Positions 8,358-22,848 of a DNA stretch of 27,882 nt are shown piece after piece. Position 1 is the first letter of the stretch, and each line of letters starts with the position of its first letter. The stretch is from positions 1-27,882 of IMG/VR virus record IMGVR_UViG_2698536647_000011. One strand, 5' to 3'. The DNA is from a virus. Lineage: Duplodnaviria > Heunggongvirae > Uroviricota > Caudoviricetes. Under the pieces are notes generated by a model that did no database searches, was not told where the DNA came from, and saw only the letters and a list, made by a program, of their open reading frames with translations. Made by a program: the position numbers and the translations under genes.

Positions 8358-8861
8358 CTATTGGTTATTCGACAGTCGCACTGATTCGTAAATCCGCTCA
8401 CACGTCATTCCTGCCCGGTAGCTTTCGTCAGATCGTCCAGCATAATATCGAGCTGCTTCTGCAAGGCTTCCGAGCATGTCGGCAAGCATTGCTGCGTTGG
8501 CTCCGGCTGTTTTGCTTCTGACGGAAGTGGCGAGATCTGCGGTGTGCTTTGCGGCGTCCATGTGGGTAGCGAGTTTTGTTGCTTCGGCGCGCAGCTGCTT
8601 AACAGTGGTAGCCAGGCCAGCAGAAGTAACGGCAGCGCTCGCTGCTTGAGCTTGAGCATCTTTAACGGCCTCATCCCGGGCGATTGTTCGCCCTTGTTCA
8701 ATCATACGAGCTGCGGTCTGTGCATTCGCTTCCTGTGAAGATTCCGCGCTATCCCGGTCAGCCCACTTTATTTTCCAGCTGCGGTTCGTCCACTCACTGC
8801 CAGCGAGAAACGAACCTACCAACGCAACAATCACAATGATGCAGATGCCACCCGGCTTCAC
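8358..8861 (-). CDS. Rz: Rz-like i-spanin
   Basis: Position after endolysin; N-terminal TM segment (ICIIVIVALVGSFLAG) then Ala/Gln/Arg-rich coiled-coil periplasmic domain; likely GTG start at 8861 overlapping endolysin stop. Start uncertain. Confidence 0.7.
   Translation of the reverse strand: MKPGGICIIVIVALVGSFLAGSEWTNRSWKIKWADRDSAESSQEANAQTAARMIEQGRTIARDEAVKDAQAQAASAAVTSAGLATTVKQLRAEATKLATHMDAAKHTADLATSVRSKTAGANAAMLADMLGSLAEAARYYAGRSDESYRAGMTCERIYESVRLSNNQ
8405..8659 (-). CDS. Rz1: Rz1-like o-spanin lipoprotein, embedded in +1 frame inside Rz
   Basis: MLKLKQRALPLLLLAWLPLLSSC lipoprotein signal with lipobox Cys, followed by Pro-rich short mature peptide; classic embedded Rz1 architecture. 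Alternative start at 8674. Confidence 0.7.
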   Translation of the reverse strand: MLKLKQRALPLLLLAWLPLLSSCAPKQQNSLPTWTPQSTPQISPLPSEAKQPEPTQQCLPTCSEALQKQLDIMLDDLTKATGQE

Positions 8862-9406
8862 TGGTCTATCCCCCAGCACGTCAGTGCGCTTTCCTGGTCC
8901 CGCCGTTCTACCTGCCCATAACATCCATCCTTCTGGCCCTTGGTCAGGCGGCAATCGCGGCCACCGTCTTTAATCCACCAGCGGATTGCCTCGCATGCAC
9001 CGATGCGGTCACCTGCGTTGATGCGCTTATAGAAGGTCGATGGGAAACATTTTCCGGGGCCGATGTTATATGGGCAGAAAGAAGCGATACCCGCTTTCTG
9101 TGGTTCGGTCAGTGGTACTTTGATATTTCGGTCAACCCACGCCAGCGCCTTGTCGCGTTCAATGGCGTTTACCTGGGCGCATTTCTCAGCTGACAGCTTC
9201 ATGCCCTGTACTACTGGCTTGCCATCAACCATTGTTGCACCACGGCAAATGGTCCAGAGTCCGCCGCCGTCGCGATATGCTGTCAAGCTGTTACCCTCTT
9301 TCTCATCCAGAAACTGATCGAGAATCACGGGTGCGGAAGCCCCGGCAAGAATCAAACCAACGACCGCTGCGCTCAATTTATTCTTCAGCTTTAGAGACAT
9401 AGCCAT
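8858..9406 (-). CDS. R: SAR endolysin (T4-lysozyme-like GH24 with N-terminal signal-anchor-release domain), phage 21 R-type
   Basis: N-terminal weakly hydrophobic Gly/Ala-rich segment (LSAAVVGLILAGASAPVIL) followed by E-x8-D-x5-T catalytic triad (EGNSLTAYRDGGGLWT). Confidence 0.9.
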   Translation of the reverse strand: MAMSLKLKNKLSAAVVGLILAGASAPVILDQFLDEKEGNSLTAYRDGGGLWTICRGATMVDGKPVVQGMKLSAEKCAQVNAIERDKALAWVDRNIKVPLTEPQKAGIASFCPYNIGPGKCFPSTFYKRINAGDRIGACEAIRWWIKDGGRDCRLTKGQKDGCYGQVERRDQESALTCWGIDQ

Positions 9407-9656
9407 TGCGCCGATCCTCCCGTTCTTTCCAGCGGAAATACCAGTTCACTGCACAGGTGATTACCGTGCATGCGATACCGACAATAATTGCCCAGTCGCT
9501 CAGGCTTAACCCTGCAATTCTGTCGGCCAACATCCAGGACACCTCTTTTGCTGTTTTTGCTGTTTCGGCATATGCCTTCGCTGATACACCGCAGCCGGTC
9601 AGCGTGGTGCCTGTTCCATATGAAAGTCTGCTGTAAATGGTGCTCATTCTGGTCAT
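9378..9656 (-). CDS. S: Holin, S21/pinholin-like, with dual-start motif (M-T-R-M)
   Basis: C-terminal ...WAIIVGIACTVITCAVNWYFRWKEREDRRNG resembles phage 21 S (…NLYFKIREDRRKAARGE) from memory; two TM segments; overlaps endolysin start; paired with SAR endolysin. Confidence 0.8.
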   Translation of the reverse strand: MTRMSTIYSRLSYGTGTTLTGCGVSAKAYAETAKTAKEVSWMLADRIAGLSLSDWAIIVGIACTVITCAVNWYFRWKEREDRRNGYVSKAEE

Positions 9657-9885
9657 AGCCTCACCTCCGATTTTTCGGATGGCGCTGTGTGTGTATGAAA
9701 AGGATCAGGCCCTCGGGACGATTTAACAAGAAGGCATGTCGATGATGGTTCCCGTGAGCCTGAAATAGAAAGCCCCAGCAAATGCCTAGGCTAAATGAGG
9801 TGCCAGATCATATATCTGGCCGTATAACCTTGCGTTTGGTATTATTAAATCGCCAAAAGTAACCCTTCAAACACAAGGATTTAAA

Positions 9886-10416
9886 ATGACAAAAAGGAAG
9901 TACCGATTTTATCATGCGGACAGGGGTAACTTGCTGAGCCCTGACATGACAATAATCCCTGTAAATGGCCTCTCTTCATTTGGAAAGCATTATCTCTCCC
10001 GGATAAATAGTGGAAATATGAGCGACGTGCTAGACGAAAATGTACAAAGAGAGATGCTGTATGAAAATGTGCGGATGGAAAATTTCCCATCCCGCCCAAG
10101 CCGATTCTCGTGCCTTTTTGGTGCGAACTCCATTCCTGAAGCGGAAAGCTTCGCCAGAAAGATAATCCCGCAACCGACCACCCCAATTAATATTTATGAA
10201 GTTTTTACTGAAAATTTTGTGATTCTCGATATGAATTGGATGGATTACATAACAACAGATTTCGGTAGTAGGGTTGAATATGCCCGGCAGTACTGGTATT
10301 CATCAATTACCCAGCACGCCCCACTTACCGGCGATAGGATGATACCAACCCTGGAAGTCCTGCTGCCGCTTCCCGTGGAAGTAGGCAAGCAAGTCAGTAC
10401 TGTCGCTTTTGATTAA
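9886..10416 (+). CDS. Hypothetical protein (176 aa), AT-rich accessory gene between Q and holin, antisense to late transcription
   Basis: Clean ORF with AAGGA RBS 6 nt upstream; low GC; no recognisable catalytic motif. Confidence 0.55.
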   Translation: MTKRKYRFYHADRGNLLSPDMTIIPVNGLSSFGKHYLSRINSGNMSDVLDENVQREMLYENVRMENFPSRPSRFSCLFGANSIPEAESFARKIIPQPTTPINIYEVFTENFVILDMNWMDYITTDFGSRVEYARQYWYSSITQHAPLTGDRMIPTLEVLLPLPVEVGKQVSTVAFD

Positions 10417-10585
10417 TCTGACAGTTCTGCTCAGGGAAATGGGCCAAAGGTTTATGTAAAGTCCAAAGCACTTCGGAAAGGATAGCTTTATATAGCTCAC
10501 CATCATTTGCATGATAGCGAAACCTTTCAGAAGGTGAGATTTCGAAAAGTACCTTTCCCTCATCTGAAACAATTCGGACTTTCAT
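10394..10585 (-). CDS. Hypothetical small protein (63 aa)
   Basis: Strong RBS (GGAGGA, spacer about 4) before ATG at 10585; 3' end overlaps the convergent 176-aa gene by 23 nt. Confidence 0.4.
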   Translation of the reverse strand: MKVRIVSDEGKVLFEISPSERFRYHANDGELYKAILSEVLWTLHKPLAHFPEQNCQINQKRQY

Positions 10586-10713
10586 CTTTCCTCCAAATTA
10601 GAAGCTACTGATTCAGTTATTACTTACTCCAGATACGACAAAGCCCCACCATTTCTGGCAGGGCTAGATTATTAAGCTGTGTGTCGAAGTGACCACTCTT
10701 AACACGTTAAACT

Positions 10714-10743
10714 AAAAAATGCGGACCGCACTAGCATTTTTTT
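10714..10743 (-). terminator. Weak bidirectional terminator-like hairpin flanked by A- and T-runs
   Basis: AAAAAATGCGGACCGCACTAGCATTTTTTT; short stem only. Confidence 0.25.
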
Positions 10744-10745
10744 AA

Positions 10746-10880
10746 TTATTTTTGCCTACTAACGACTGCATCCATCTCAAGGCGAACATCCAGCATTGAC
10801 AGACACCCCTCAATAAACCCTTCAGCAAGCAGCATTTCTATGCGTATCTGCTTTTCGCTTTTCTTCCGGTGCTTCGCCAT
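10746..10880 (-). pseudogene. Possible 3' remnant of a second Q-family antiterminator gene (44-codon ORF)
   Basis: ...KQIRIEMLLAEGFIEGCLSMLDVRLEMD... parallels the C-terminal segment of the intact Q upstream (ISTIRREVKQIINASLFCL) and what I recall of QuuD-type C-termini; no good RBS. Confidence 0.25.
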
Positions 10881-10940
10881 CTGCCGTTTTGAATACCGTA
10901 GAATATAATGCCCAACCAACAAATGATTGTCTGCGGCCGA

Positions 10941-10966
10941 AATAAAAAAGCCCGAGACAAGCGGGC
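10941..10966 (-). terminator. Intrinsic terminator (candidate late-operon terminator, second of a tandem pair)
   Basis: On - strand GCCCG-CTTGTCT-CGGGC followed by TTTTTTATTT. Confidence 0.55.
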
Positions 10967-11040
10967 AATATGGGGGTAAGGCAATGCCGGCTCGTTGGCC
11001 GAAGGGTCCCAGGCAGTGGGTTCTGTGTGCGGCGTACCGC

Positions 11041-11070
11041 AAATAAAAAAGCCCCGCACGATGGCGAGGC
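11041..11070 (-). terminator. Intrinsic terminator immediately downstream of Q (first of a tandem pair)
   Basis: On - strand GCCTCGC-CATCGT-GCGGGGC followed by TTTTTTATTT; shares the AAATAAAAAAGCCC core with the 10941 terminator. Confidence 0.55.
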
Positions 11071-11151
11071 TTGGCATTCATTCATGTCACACACAACAAC
11101 GGCAACATATACGATTTATTCTGCTCATTTGTTCATTGAAAAGCAAGCTCG

Positions 11152-11634
11152 TTATGAGGATTTTTTTGCAATTTTCCTCACATTTTCGCGATTGTTAAAC
11201 GCATTTTGCAGCGGTTGGTACAAGCAGAACAGTGAGGCATTGATGATTTGCTTCACCTCTCTACGGATTGTCGAGATGCTTGGGTGTTTATACTGATTTC
11301 CGCCACGCGTCTTCATCAGGCGAGGCTTACTTACTGCATGCTGCCATGATGCAATTCGGATCTCGCTGGAGTTACAAACGTAGTAGGCGAAGACAACCCG
11401 CCAGGCATTTTCATCCACATTCTTCAGATAGTGACGAATGACAGCATCAATGAGCATCCCGTCATCATCACTACATACCGGTCGTGATGCTTGCTGGGGC
11501 TCAACGGTAGCCATGAATCTGGCAATCATGTTGATCATCGCTTTATCAATCTTGCCGGTCTGGCACCATGCGCCCCACAACTGGAGCCACTGGTCTACCC
11601 ATTGATGCTGGTCGTTGGTTAATTCCAGTTTCAT
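11152..11634 (-). CDS. Q: Late-gene antiterminator Q (Q21/QuuD-type family, not lambda-Q type)
   Basis: 160 aa; position between nin genes and lysis cassette; ...WLQLWGAWCQ... and ...SRPVCSDDDGM... resemble what I recall of E. coli QuuD (ERWGAW..., SRPQCCDDDGM); RBS AAGGAAG. Confidence 0.7.
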   Translation of the reverse strand: MKLELTNDQHQWVDQWLQLWGAWCQTGKIDKAMINMIARFMATVEPQQASRPVCSDDDGMLIDAVIRHYLKNVDENAWRVVFAYYVCNSSEIRIASWQHAVSKPRLMKTRGGNQYKHPSISTIRREVKQIINASLFCLYQPLQNAFNNRENVRKIAKKSS

Positions 11635-11746
11635 TATGCGGCTTCCTTCTGTGGCTGGTTGGTTTTGGTCTGGCTGTGCTTTGCTACTGGGGGCATGCAG
11701 GCGCGCTTAACGCTTTCTGCCTGGTACCGCAGGAAATCGGCGTGGC

Positions 11747-12391
11747 TCATGCGGCCTCCTGTCGGCGTGCCCGGCGTTTTTCCAGCGCGCGGGCTTTGCG
11801 TGTGAAAATGGATTTGATGCGCTGAAGGTATGGGATATCGAACCGGCGCGGCTCGTTATCAGACTCAAGGCGCTCGACACGTTCCTGTCCGATACGCTCA
11901 ACCAGGCGGATCCGGTACTCGACAGCATTCCCACTCAGCTGCCGGTTGCATCGGGTGCAAGCGGAGTGGACGTTAAAAACGTTGAATTTGAGGTGTGATG
12001 CAGCGCCGCGCGAACGGTAATGGCTAGCATCAATGGCGCTGCCAGTCAGGTAATTGCTTTTGCCGATGAGTGGATTGCCGCAGCTGACGCATTCTTTCCC
12101 CTCGTCCCGGATCCGGATGTAGCGGTTAAAGGCCGATTGAGCCTCTTTATCCCACTGGGATTTAGACTTGAGTGACTCGCGCTTTTCTTGTCGGCGTTTG
12201 CGCCCGGCCTTCTCGGCTTCTTTCTGCTCCTTTATGCGCTTAGCAGCGGCTTTCACCTTCTCCTTTTCGCGTTCTTCCATCGCGAGGATTGTGCCGTGCT
12301 CCGGGCAGCACCAGCGGATCCGGATGTCGTGGAATTTCGGCACGAAGTATTCACCGCATACTTTGCACTTACGGCGGGATGGCTTACGCAC
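11747..12391 (-). CDS. ninG: NinG / Rap recombination protein
   Basis: 214 aa; N-terminal Cys cluster (RRKCKVCGEYF...WCCPEHG), Lys/Glu/Arg-rich linker and C-terminal ...SCG...GHY...RCN...RIGQE... match lambda NinG; GTG start with AGGAGG RBS. Confidence 0.85.
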   Translation of the reverse strand: MRKPSRRKCKVCGEYFVPKFHDIRIRWCCPEHGTILAMEEREKEKVKAAAKRIKEQKEAEKAGRKRRQEKRESLKSKSQWDKEAQSAFNRYIRIRDEGKECVSCGNPLIGKSNYLTGSAIDASHYRSRGAASHLKFNVFNVHSACTRCNRQLSGNAVEYRIRLVERIGQERVERLESDNEPRRFDIPYLQRIKSIFTRKARALEKRRARRQEAA

Positions 12392-22708: not shown

Positions 22709-22848
22709 GCGAAAGCCCACCGAAGTGGGCCCGCCATGTCCGGCCTCACCGACCAAAGTTACACCGGAAACAACATTAAAACCAAAGTTAACCCAATGGG
22801 CGCTATCAATGGTCCGGGGATTCTAACACCCAAAAAAGAGGATCTCAC

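Follow-up and report, generated by a model that had tools for sequence, protein, structure and literature searches.

A proposed lambdoid prophage late-gene control region in which a Q21-type antitermination module stands upstream of a truncated second Q and its orphan late-promoter block

We analysed a 27,882-nucleotide (nt) stretch of DNA (hereafter the window; positions 1 to 27,882 of the IMG/VR virus record IMGVR_UViG_2698536647_000011, a virus of the Caudoviricetes), and within it the region that follows the gene for the late antiterminator Q (positions 10,714 to 11,151). We propose that this interval is the late-gene control region of a lambda-like (lambdoid) prophage, and that it was built through at least two module exchanges: a Q21-type module, with its own late promoter (PR′) and terminator (tR′), stands upstream of the cut gene of a second Q, from another subfamily, and of the late-promoter block that belonged to that second Q. 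To this explanation as a whole we give a probability of about 85%, and all of its parts fit known kinds, namely a Q21-type antitermination cassette, lambdoid mosaicism and a Q pseudogene that is flagged by PGAP. It rests directly on homologies, joints, hairpins, the covariation of the second terminator and the association of the promoter block with short Q proteins. The minus strand is the coding strand of the phage genes here and carries all features of the switch; in that direction the order is NinG (12391..11747), a 38-amino-acid (aa) open reading frame (ORF) with a PPVAKH motif, Q (11634..11152), the region under study, a 63-aa ORF, a DUF2441 gene on the opposite strand, the holin gene (9656..9378), the lysozyme gene and an Rz-like gene. 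As comparators we aligned HK639, the G3/10 prophage, 23CRST004, CobraSix, MLI104K1 and the phage 21 record OL657228; a 2-kb stretch of the region is 99.5% identical to the E. coli AREA_C483 prophage and 99.6% identical to one IMG/VR contig.

Q21 and Q933W belong to one family, PF06530, the cassette of which consists of Q, PR′, a Q-binding element (QBE) of two directly repeated 8-bp subsites, a sigma-dependent pause element (SDPE) and a terminator (10.1101/651190). PR′ is constitutive and is stopped at tR′ in lysogens, and Q gives read-through (10.1101/651190; PMC7547250). The intact Q of the window is homologous along its full length to the characterised member Q21: it matches PF06530 in Pfam (E 1.8e-21) and PHROG 943 (E 2.4e-70), and its residues 2-156 align to residues 5-159 of Q21 (structures 6P18/6JNX; E 1.3e-46). 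It is 97.5% identical to the Q of HK639, lies between the nin-region genes and the lysis genes, and has a PR′ and a terminator of its own on its 3′ side. Upstream of it, and as a separate observation, the stop codon of the 38-aa ORF (11634-11750, minus strand) overlaps the Q start codon by one base. The homologue of this ORF in 23CRST004 is named by PGAP as a ‘PPVAKH motif-containing phage-derived small protein’, and the ORF is conserved 5′ of Q in every Q21-like comparator; MLI104K1, whose 229-aa Q is unrelated, has it there as well (93.7% identical over 63 nt).

The reference elements of PR′21 were taken from the annotated phage 21 genome record, in which they follow one another as a -35 (TTGACA), QBEu (ATTGAGCA), QBEd (AATGAGCA), a -10 (AACACT), the start site, the SDPE (TAAGCTG), the terminator, tRNA-Asn, tRNA-Thr and the holin gene. 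When the window, HK639, G3/10 and 23CRST004 are aligned to phage 21, each element of the cassette has a counterpart in the window (Table 1). The putative -35 and -10 are 17 nt apart, and the QBE is made of two directly repeated 8-bp subsites that abut the -10; QBEd is identical to that of phage 21 and QBEu differs from its counterpart at 2 of the 8 positions. The repeat is identical in the window, HK639, G3/10 and 23CRST004, although the Q-region DNA of 23CRST004 is 84% identical, and its match is the sole exact one in the window, where no other site has fewer than three mismatches.

Downstream of this promoter, terminator 1 (9-bp stem, 6-nt loop, U6AU3 tail, -14.6 kcal/mol, z -2.4) comes just after the phage-21-type PR′ and its predicted leader RNA of about 68 nt, and we therefore take it to be tR′. 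The HK639 record annotates it as a terminator, and its position equals that of the phage 21 late terminator. By alignment, then, a phage-21-type PR′, QBE, SDPE and tR′ support the view that the interval is a putative late-promoter/antitermination region, as an earlier note made from the sequence alone had suggested. In being a predicted short RNA that starts just 3′ of Q and ends at an intrinsic terminator the leader resembles lambda 6S RNA and the Gifsy-1 RNAs IsrK and IsrJ, and the terminator 1 hairpin resembles that of isrJ. The Rfam match to isrJ (RF01393; 11120..11048) is full-length, stopping before most of the U-tract, but it consists mostly of the hairpin and scores 28.3 bits against a gathering threshold of 37; we therefore rejected the leader as an isrJ RNA, and no regulatory role is implied for it.

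Phage 21 is thus the nearest model of the active switch, with Q homology over the full length, the same order and spacing of elements, the same QBEd, the SDPE in the same column and a terminator after a short leader. The window differs from it in that its Q is only about 47% identical, its leader is about 68 nt rather than 50 nt, and no tRNA genes follow tR′; instead there are another spacer, a second terminator and, ahead of the holin leader, a foreign insert of 1.16 kb made up of the Q remnant, the orphan promoter and cargo. The closest Q modules are those of HK639 and G3/10, which share with the window a Q that is 97-98% identical, the PR′ region and terminator 1.

The second Q is of another kind. 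The earlier note had pointed to a 44-codon ORF downstream of the terminators as a possible second 3′ fragment of Q, paralleling the C-terminal segment of the intact one. A second Q fragment it is, from a different, short Stx-phage-like subfamily: the 44-aa ORF matches Pfam Phage_antitermQ (profile positions 84-118 of 118, E 1.7e-8, 34.8 bits against a curated cut-off of 26), and its frame, read back to 10931, matches PF06530 from profile position 67 (67-118, E 3.2e-14; 53.3 bits for the 10746..11081 frame). PHROG 79 is matched over positions 97-154 of 156, and PGAP calls the same 186-nt stretch an incomplete antiterminator Q family protein without an N-terminus in two E. coli genomes (L001, L002). 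The parallel to the intact Q is one of position only: BLASTP gave no alignment of the 44-aa ORF with the intact Q at E<=100, and in a profile-profile comparison (hhalign) the two Q subfamilies align, at 97.8% probability, only over the N-terminal ~85 residues, that is, up to where the 44-aa ORF begins.

The remnant aligns from residue ~68 of full-length Q proteins of 126-144 aa and begins at about codon 70 (...DYHLLVGHY...) relative to them. Full-length relatives came from loci selected by the DNA pattern described below and are found in viral contigs (for example L065 and L040, with a Q of ~137 aa); the closest, L087, has 87.7% DNA identity. A large protein search for a full-length parent returned only eight short (50-90 aa) C-terminal pieces of Q, to which the genomic surroundings of two of them added little, a search of PDB sequences with the remnant gave no match, and the other ORFs of the interval, on both strands, are without a Pfam match. 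Since the N-terminal half (WGAW..., and the C-DDDG region) is missing and the match is confined to profile positions 67-118, the second Q is a pseudogene and not a functional member of its family.

How the gene was cut can be read from its left-hand edge. Up to 10921 the sequence is that of the terminator 2 trailer of 23CRST004 and CobraSix (GGCCGCAGACAATCAYTT), and Q homology starts from about 10927 (GATTATCACTTGCTGG in L087); the two partners overlap in ATCAYTTG (10927..10920), so that the joint is a crossover in an 8-nt microhomology. An identical joint stands behind two Q modules, the Q21-like one of the window and AREA_C483 and, in MLI104K1, a 229-aa Q with tRNA-Asn and tRNA-Thr. This suggests that the truncation happened once and that the upstream module was exchanged again later, in the spacer region around 11023-11030, giving at least two exchanges. 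The proposal of the earlier note that the region is a recombination scar from Q-module exchange is borne out by these clean mosaic joints and by the same remnant behind two Q modules. Boundaries in lambdoid mosaics are attributed to relaxed or short-homology recombination (PMC3945230), and the window has the same sharp transitions of ancestry, the 8-nt microhomology joint and a spacer with terminator 2 that behaves like a linker across different Q modules. Nothing in this is unusual; the added detail is the truncation of a gene whose promoter stayed in place.

On the right-hand side, G3/10 homology resumes at 9779, where the hairpin 9792..9771 and the sequence that follows align with terminator 2 and the holin leader of G3/10; the predicted terminator 5 of the window is the positional counterpart of that terminator 2. 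The Q remnant, the orphan promoter, terminator 4, the 63-aa ORF and the DUF2441 gene thus all fall within the 1.16-kb segment 10939..9780. This segment is flanked by two terminator-plus-leader copies, and is best seen as the leftover of the late region of a resident short-Q phage after a Q21-type module had been joined to it.

That the dead Q left a late promoter behind is indicated by the homology to phages with a full-length short Q, which extends about 74 nt beyond the stop of the remnant. Six independent prophages have one layout there: an A-tract, TAGYGCGGTCCGCA, 15 variable nt, TGTTAAGAGTGGTYACTTCG...CTTAA, and a hairpin with a T-tract. The block pattern occurs in at least 120 viral contigs, and among the 106 loci having any Q within 4 kb upstream, a short PF06530 Q on the same strand is found in 105 and the 229-aa type in none; the single exception has a Q21-like Q, as does the window. 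The block thus lies 3′ of this type of Q and is followed by a terminator-like hairpin. That it follows Q directly holds for only 33 of the 106 loci and was given up as a rule; in the other 73, Q and block are separated by 0.1-1.8 kb (median about 1.2 kb), and the association holds once up to 1.8 kb of cargo is allowed. In the loci surveyed for cargo (viral contigs L015-L134, L135 4743-6992 and L136 4545-6744), the DNA between Q and block is opposite-strand cargo in 59 of 66 distinct cases, and the Q-to-PR′ gap of short-Q prophages seems to be a preferred site of cargo insertion.

Within the 15 free nt lies a YANNNT hexamer, with A in 82 of 82 distinct sequences, T or C before it and T four bases on; in this column the Sakai prophage Sp5 has TATCAT, then GATAAGAGTGG. 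The PR′ start of Sakai is published, with a transcript of 258 nt (PMC7547250), and counting 258 nt back from the tR′ T-tract puts this start inside TAAGAG, 7 nt past the hexamer. Our first mapping of the orphan unit, by analogy with phage 21 (TAGTTT as -10 and TAAGAGT as SDPE), was dropped, as the invariant positions of the 82 copies and the Sakai anchor favour TAACGT, with a start within TAAGAG. Every position that does not vary between copies is intact in the window (A-tract, T, palindrome, YANNNT hexamer and transcribed block), and no Q21-type QBE is found in the window beyond that of the active PR′.

The third weak terminator that the earlier note had placed after the ORF belongs to this block. 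A weak hairpin (10732..10718; -6.4 kcal/mol, mostly A-U pairs) with a T-run after the palindrome does exist, between the A-tract and the -10; half of the relatives have A’s in place of the T-run, and so terminator function is not what has been conserved in it. The orphan unit appears rather to have its own terminator outside the interval, terminator 4 (10-bp stem, 4-nt loop, -17.4 kcal/mol, z -3.9, imperfect tail CUUUGUCGU), at the position of which 73 of 83 distinct block copies have a hairpin with a T-tract. With regard to such hairpins, Sakai Sp5 (L255, 863-895) has a good one with T7 about 20-50 nt after the PR′ start, yet the published transcript, 258 nt long, ends at a later terminator. 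In this promoter family the first hairpin may thus be an inefficient terminator, which bears on the reading of terminator 4.

The likeness of the orphan unit to the PR′/StxS unit of Stx phages (Sakai Sp5, 933W-type Q; PMC7547250) lies in the dead Q, which belongs to PF06530 like the short Stx-phage Q, and in the block, which has a like -10 position and a TAAGAGTGGTYAC... transcribed stretch, then a hairpin. The units differ in that the cognate Q is truncated in the window, where the unit extends to the first hairpin, ~60 nt beyond the predicted start, against a transcript of 258 nt in Sp5. No homologue of StxS (74 nt) was found in the window, BLASTN of the Sp5 PR′-to-tR′ sequence aligning only the 28-nt initial transcribed block (E 0.27) and T-tracts.

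Between terminator 1 and the joint lie a 17-nt linker, a 57-nt spacer and terminator 2. The spacer is 84-99% identical in MLI104K1, 23CRST004, CobraSix and G3/10, where it lies 3′ of tRNA genes or of terminator 1. Terminator 2 (5-bp GC stem, 7-nt loop, U6AU3 tail, -8.1 kcal/mol) has compensatory changes at 3 of its 5 pairs, with 65-67 of 67 distinct sequences paired, and is therefore a selected hairpin; like terminator 1, it has the GC-rich hairpin and U-tract of an intrinsic terminator. What surrounds these elements varies from one comparator to the next. HK639 shares 11695..11046 (Q and terminator 1) with the window, then has tRNA-Asn directly 3′ of terminator 1 and another downstream region with three more annotated terminators, its record thus having several between Q and holin. 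In 23CRST004, Q and terminator 1 are followed by tRNA-Thr, by a part of the spacer and by terminator 2, after which comes the holin gene. CobraSix has a different Q, of 229 aa, and a hairpin like terminator 1; an ORF and tRNA-Arg separate these from the spacer, terminator 2 and the holin gene. In MLI104K1 a 229-aa Q precedes tRNA-Asn and tRNA-Thr, beyond which the sequence matches window positions 11023 to 9688 at 99.5% identity. G3/10 agrees with the window from Q through terminator 1, linker and spacer to terminator 2, but there passes directly into the holin leader, and both the Q remnant and the cargo are absent from it. On these alignments terminator 2 is not a copy of terminator 1; it forms with the spacer a separate, widespread conserved module, and in relatives (phage 21-like, HK639-like, CobraSix) this module comes after tRNA genes and before the holin gene. 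We read terminator 2 as a probable second barrier ahead of the lysis genes, which Q-modified polymerase would pass. The module is absent from all 118 loci selected by the orphan-type block (short-Q loci), so that the two are not generally linked.

We propose that the switch most likely works in the manner of phage 21, to judge from that model and the homologies above. In the lysogen, transcripts from PR′ (about 11110) would stop at terminator 1 as a short leader, and terminator 2 would catch what leaks through. On induction Q would bind the QBE and load onto RNA polymerase paused at TATGTTG, and the Q-modified polymerase would then pass all hairpins (terminators 1 and 2, the weak third one, and terminators 4 and 5) to reach the holin, lysozyme and spanin genes ~1.45 kb downstream; we infer that the holin gene is the target of this read-through. 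As to its origin, a crossover within the 8-nt microhomology would have joined the terminator 2 trailer to Q coding sequence and so truncated a short Stx-like Q at about codon 70, leaving the late-promoter block of the dead Q, its terminator and two cargo genes downstream as an orphan unit.

Several points weigh against this explanation. Both hexamers of the active PR′ are weak (3 of 6 consensus matches for the -35 TTGCTT and 4 of 6 for the -10 CAGAAT), a simple promoter scan of the window did not list the site, and the orphan block is without a recognisable -35. The 3′ end of Q (11152-11170) has a run of seven A’s in the window against six in G3/10, and this one-base insertion shifts the frame of the C-terminal tail and replaces the last residues: the window Q ends ...KIAKKSS at 160 aa, and the A6 form ends ...KIAKNPHNALAFQ at 166 aa in G3/10. 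Q is likewise 166 aa long in 23CRST004, and 165 aa in HK639, and AREA_C483 carries a Q gene of the same 483-nt length as the window. The change falls outside the segment aligned to Q21, and we assume that the window Q is active. The Sakai start was placed by counting 258 nt from the T-tract, the published coordinates being those of an earlier version of the record. More generally, we infer every start site and every termination event from sequence, as we do the promoter hexamers and the antitermination activity, and sequences do not give the order or direction of the module exchanges. Lastly, the tRNAs that relatives have between the terminators may have been lost here or never gained.

This last point leads to the alternative that fares best, namely that the tandem layout is a deletion product, in which an ancestor like HK639, phage 21 or 23CRST004 lost its tRNAs and the 17-nt linker remains; we hold it a real contender, at slightly under even odds. 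The two terminators are only 101 nt apart because tRNAs are absent between tR′ and spacer, and the nearest Q relatives carry tRNAs at exactly this point. An 18-nt motif of the spacer (CCTGGGACCCTTCGGCCA) occurs in at least 120 viral contigs; 98 of these have at least 600 nt upstream and at least 400 nt downstream of it, and in 43 of the 98 ARAGORN found tRNAs upstream, the last usually ending 9-10 nt before the motif. The 3′ part of the linker (CGCCGCACACAGAACCC) moreover resembles the 3′ end (...GATCGCCACACACAGAACCC) of a tRNA-like element in 12 other contigs, which slightly favours a putative loss of tRNAs here over a gain elsewhere. Nevertheless, the tRNA-less tandem layout is found in 32 of 119 classified viral contigs, where one identical linker stands behind several first-terminator stems, and a stable module in its own right would fit this as well as would a repeated scar; ARAGORN finds neither a tRNA nor a tRNA remnant in the window, and the data give no direction between loss and gain. 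Touching the same gap, though on a different matter, an element of ~200 nt that looks structured (...CACAACAGGAAAGAGCATT...GTGCTCTGTCCGTTGTGGTG...) lies between tR′ and spacer in many contigs (L007, which is CobraSix, at ~1900-2000; L244, L248, L146). In some it has a tRNA-like T-arm (GGTTCGAGTCCGATCGCCA) at its end, uncalled by ARAGORN, and the element may be an unusual tRNA-like or other RNA gene.

A second proposal would be an addition to our explanation rather than a replacement for it: that the orphan promoter unit is still active, being constitutive in the lysogen and giving a terminated RNA of ~60 nt, the leak from which would express the 63-aa ORF without Q. We put this forward tentatively, as the less probable state of the unit. 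It would accord with the intact invariant positions of the window copy, with the description of PR′ of Stx phages as always active and terminated in lysogens (PMC7547250), with the combination of a strong stem and a CUUUGUCGU tail in terminator 4, and with the start of the 63-aa ORF 47 nt past that tail behind a strong ribosome-binding site. Yet this putative promoter has no recognisable -35, and its activity may depend on the cognate Q or on further factors; a like ‘TTTTGTCGT’-type tail is found in many intact copies, so that the tail need not leak, and the 63-aa ORF is without a known family. Taken further, the exchange of Q modules might have turned a late promoter into a lysogenic one, with the orphan PR′ (10743..10632) firing constitutively beyond the reach of antitermination by its own Q, yielding the ~60-nt RNA and leaky expression of the 63-aa ORF, and with the gap between short Q and PR′ serving as a preferred site of opposite-strand cargo (59/66); this fuller version we regard as doubtful.

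An unlikely reading of the conserved module, made by analogy with the short RNA StxS, is that the spacer and terminator 2 (about 11023..10940) would be a conserved small RNA derived from the 3′ end of PR′ read-through or of tRNA transcripts. StxS itself arises in this way, from the 3′ end of a PR′ transcript (PMC7547250), and the 57-nt spacer is at least 84% conserved among phages with unrelated flanks and ends in a covarying hairpin with a long U-tract. However, the spacer has no match to an Rfam family, the whole stretch folds like its shuffles (z 0.0), and the predicted spacer helices are invariant in a sample that was chosen by the 18-nt motif inside the spacer, with no covariation beyond the terminator. 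A role as a recombination linker between modules could also explain the conservation, and the module is missing from all of the 118 short-Q-block loci.

We think it very improbable that a functional small protein, such as an antitermination modulator derived from Q, is encoded by the 44-aa ORF or by the 61-codon frame. The frame does stay open and contains an ATG, its product is near-identical to the same part of the L087 Q though the DNA is 87.7% identical, and other Q C-terminal pieces of 50-90 aa are present in the protein database. The amino-acid conservation can predate the truncation, however, and gene calling may have produced the short database entries from full-length or broken genes; what remains of the protein is without the whole N-terminal half common to the Q subfamilies, including the conserved C-DDDG region, the ATG of the 44-codon ORF has no clear Shine-Dalgarno sequence before it (by eye), PGAP calls the frame incomplete, and the remnant occurs in only 2 of 5426 complete E. 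coli genomes.

The earlier note had described terminators 1 and 2 as near-duplicates about 100 bp apart with a common core. The hairpins are real, and an exact 14-mer (GGGCTTTTTTATTT; AAATAAAAAAGCCC on the plus strand) does recur at 11041-11054 and 10940-10953, 101 nt apart, where shuffles expect 0.01 matches, but the name of near-duplicates does not fit: the common part is made of the last four stem bases and the T-tract, and the stems (9-bp and 5-bp) and loops are unrelated. That the pair arose by local tandem duplication of one terminator is hardly credible, since for all the rarity of such a match the flanks too are unrelated, the two are separated in relatives by tRNA genes or other RNA-like elements, the terminator 2 stems vary among these relatives (CCGGC.., CCTGG..) so that the 14-mer identity is not conserved, a 13-mer of the core also ends an unrelated terminator in phage L008, and the alignments show the opposite of an end-to-end repeated 101-nt unit.

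The features of the late region, in the order of the minus strand, are collected in Table 1.

Table 1. Features of the late-control region and its surroundings (window positions)
Feature	Position	Strand	Basis
Intact antiterminator Q, 160 aa; Q21 subtype of the Q21/Q933W family PF06530	11152..11634	-	Pfam and structure-sequence match
Putative PR′ -35, TTGCTT	11146..11141	-	1 nt upstream of the column aligned with phage 21 TTGACA
Q-binding element, QBEu AATGAACA + QBEd AATGAGCA, direct repeat	11137..11122	-	Aligned with phage 21 ATTGAGCA+AATGAGCA
Putative PR′ -10, CAGAAT	11123..11118	-	Overlaps the QBEd end as in phage 21; A at position 2, T at position 6
Predicted PR′ start, A	about 11110	-	Aligned with the phage 21 start-site column; by homology
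Predicted SDPE, TATGTTG	11109..11103	-	Same column as phage 21 TAAGCTG; by homology
Terminator 1, putative tR′ of the active late promoter	11041..11072 (stem 11072..11049, T-tract 11050..11041)	-	Hairpin scan and folding
17-nt linker, GCGGTACGCCGCACACA	11024..11040	-	Conserved in tRNA-less tandem contigs
Conserved 57-nt spacer before terminator 2	10967..11023	-	Comparator alignments
Terminator 2, second terminator before the lysis genes	10940..10966 (stem 10966..10950, T-tract 10949..10940)	-	Scan, folding, covariation
Terminator 2 trailer and recombination joint (microhomology ATCATTTG at 10927..10920)	10920..10938	-	Partner alignments
Q pseudogene, last 61 codons of a short Stx-phage-like Q, ~70 N-terminal codons missing	10746..10931	-	Pfam, PHROG, PGAP
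44-codon ORF of the earlier note (internal ATG in the pseudogene frame)	10746..10880	-	ORF list
Orphan late-promoter block of the dead Q	10672..10743	-	Conserved in independent prophages
A-tract of the orphan block	10743..10737	-	Pattern
Palindrome GCGGTCCGC in the orphan block	10729..10721	-	The ‘third terminator’ hairpin (10732..10718) of the earlier note
Putative -10-like TAACGT of the orphan block	10709..10704	-	Alignment of invariant positions
Predicted orphan start	about 10699-10697	-	Sakai anchor; conserved transcribed stretch to 10672
Terminator 4, putative own terminator of the orphan unit (outside the interval)	10632..10665 (hairpin 10665..10642)	-	Folding
63-aa cargo ORF, strong ribosome-binding site GGAGGAAAG-ATG	10394..10585	-	ORF list
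Opposite-strand cargo gene, DUF2441 domain, 176 aa	9886..10416	+	Pfam DUF2441, E 5e-8; PHROG 5663 (unknown function), E 3.6e-27
Terminator 5 and start of the holin leader	9762..9792 (hairpin 9792..9771)	-	-10.4 kcal/mol, tail UUUCUAUU
Holin, first lysis gene	9378..9656	-	Pfam Phage_holin_2_3, E 1.7e-11
Lysozyme	9406..8858	-	3′ of holin

The two cargo genes are convergent, and their 3′ ends overlap by 23 nt. The layout points to a pair of cargo genes (‘morons’), between which there may be antisense interplay. For the 63-aa ORF there is no match in Pfam, PHROG, PADLOC or NCBIfam; the DUF2441 protein matches families of unknown function only, and has none in PADLOC or NCBIfam. Away from the late region, the only Rfam match in the window above threshold is to the Hfq-binding RNA isrB (22710-22807, minus strand; 38.2 bits against 35, E 0.0012), which sits in the gap between a 95-aa ORF and a 1129-aa ORF (plus strand).

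Our analysis leaves the current understanding of Q antitermination unchanged and describes ordinary phage mosaicism. It offers a worked example of how a late-control module is swapped, with one joint inside a Q gene at an 8-nt microhomology and a second exchange in a conserved spacer, the result being a Q21-type switch, to all appearance a working one, stacked upstream of a dead Q with an intact-looking promoter. For the annotation of such regions this means that the 44-aa ORF is not to be annotated as a gene, that terminator 1 is in all probability tR′, and that the ‘third terminator’ is part of a promoter block. The sequence signature of the late promoter of short Stx-type Q proteins may aid the annotation of prophage late regions, as may the cargo that usually lies between short Q and promoter, and the widespread spacer-plus-terminator module ahead of the holin gene.

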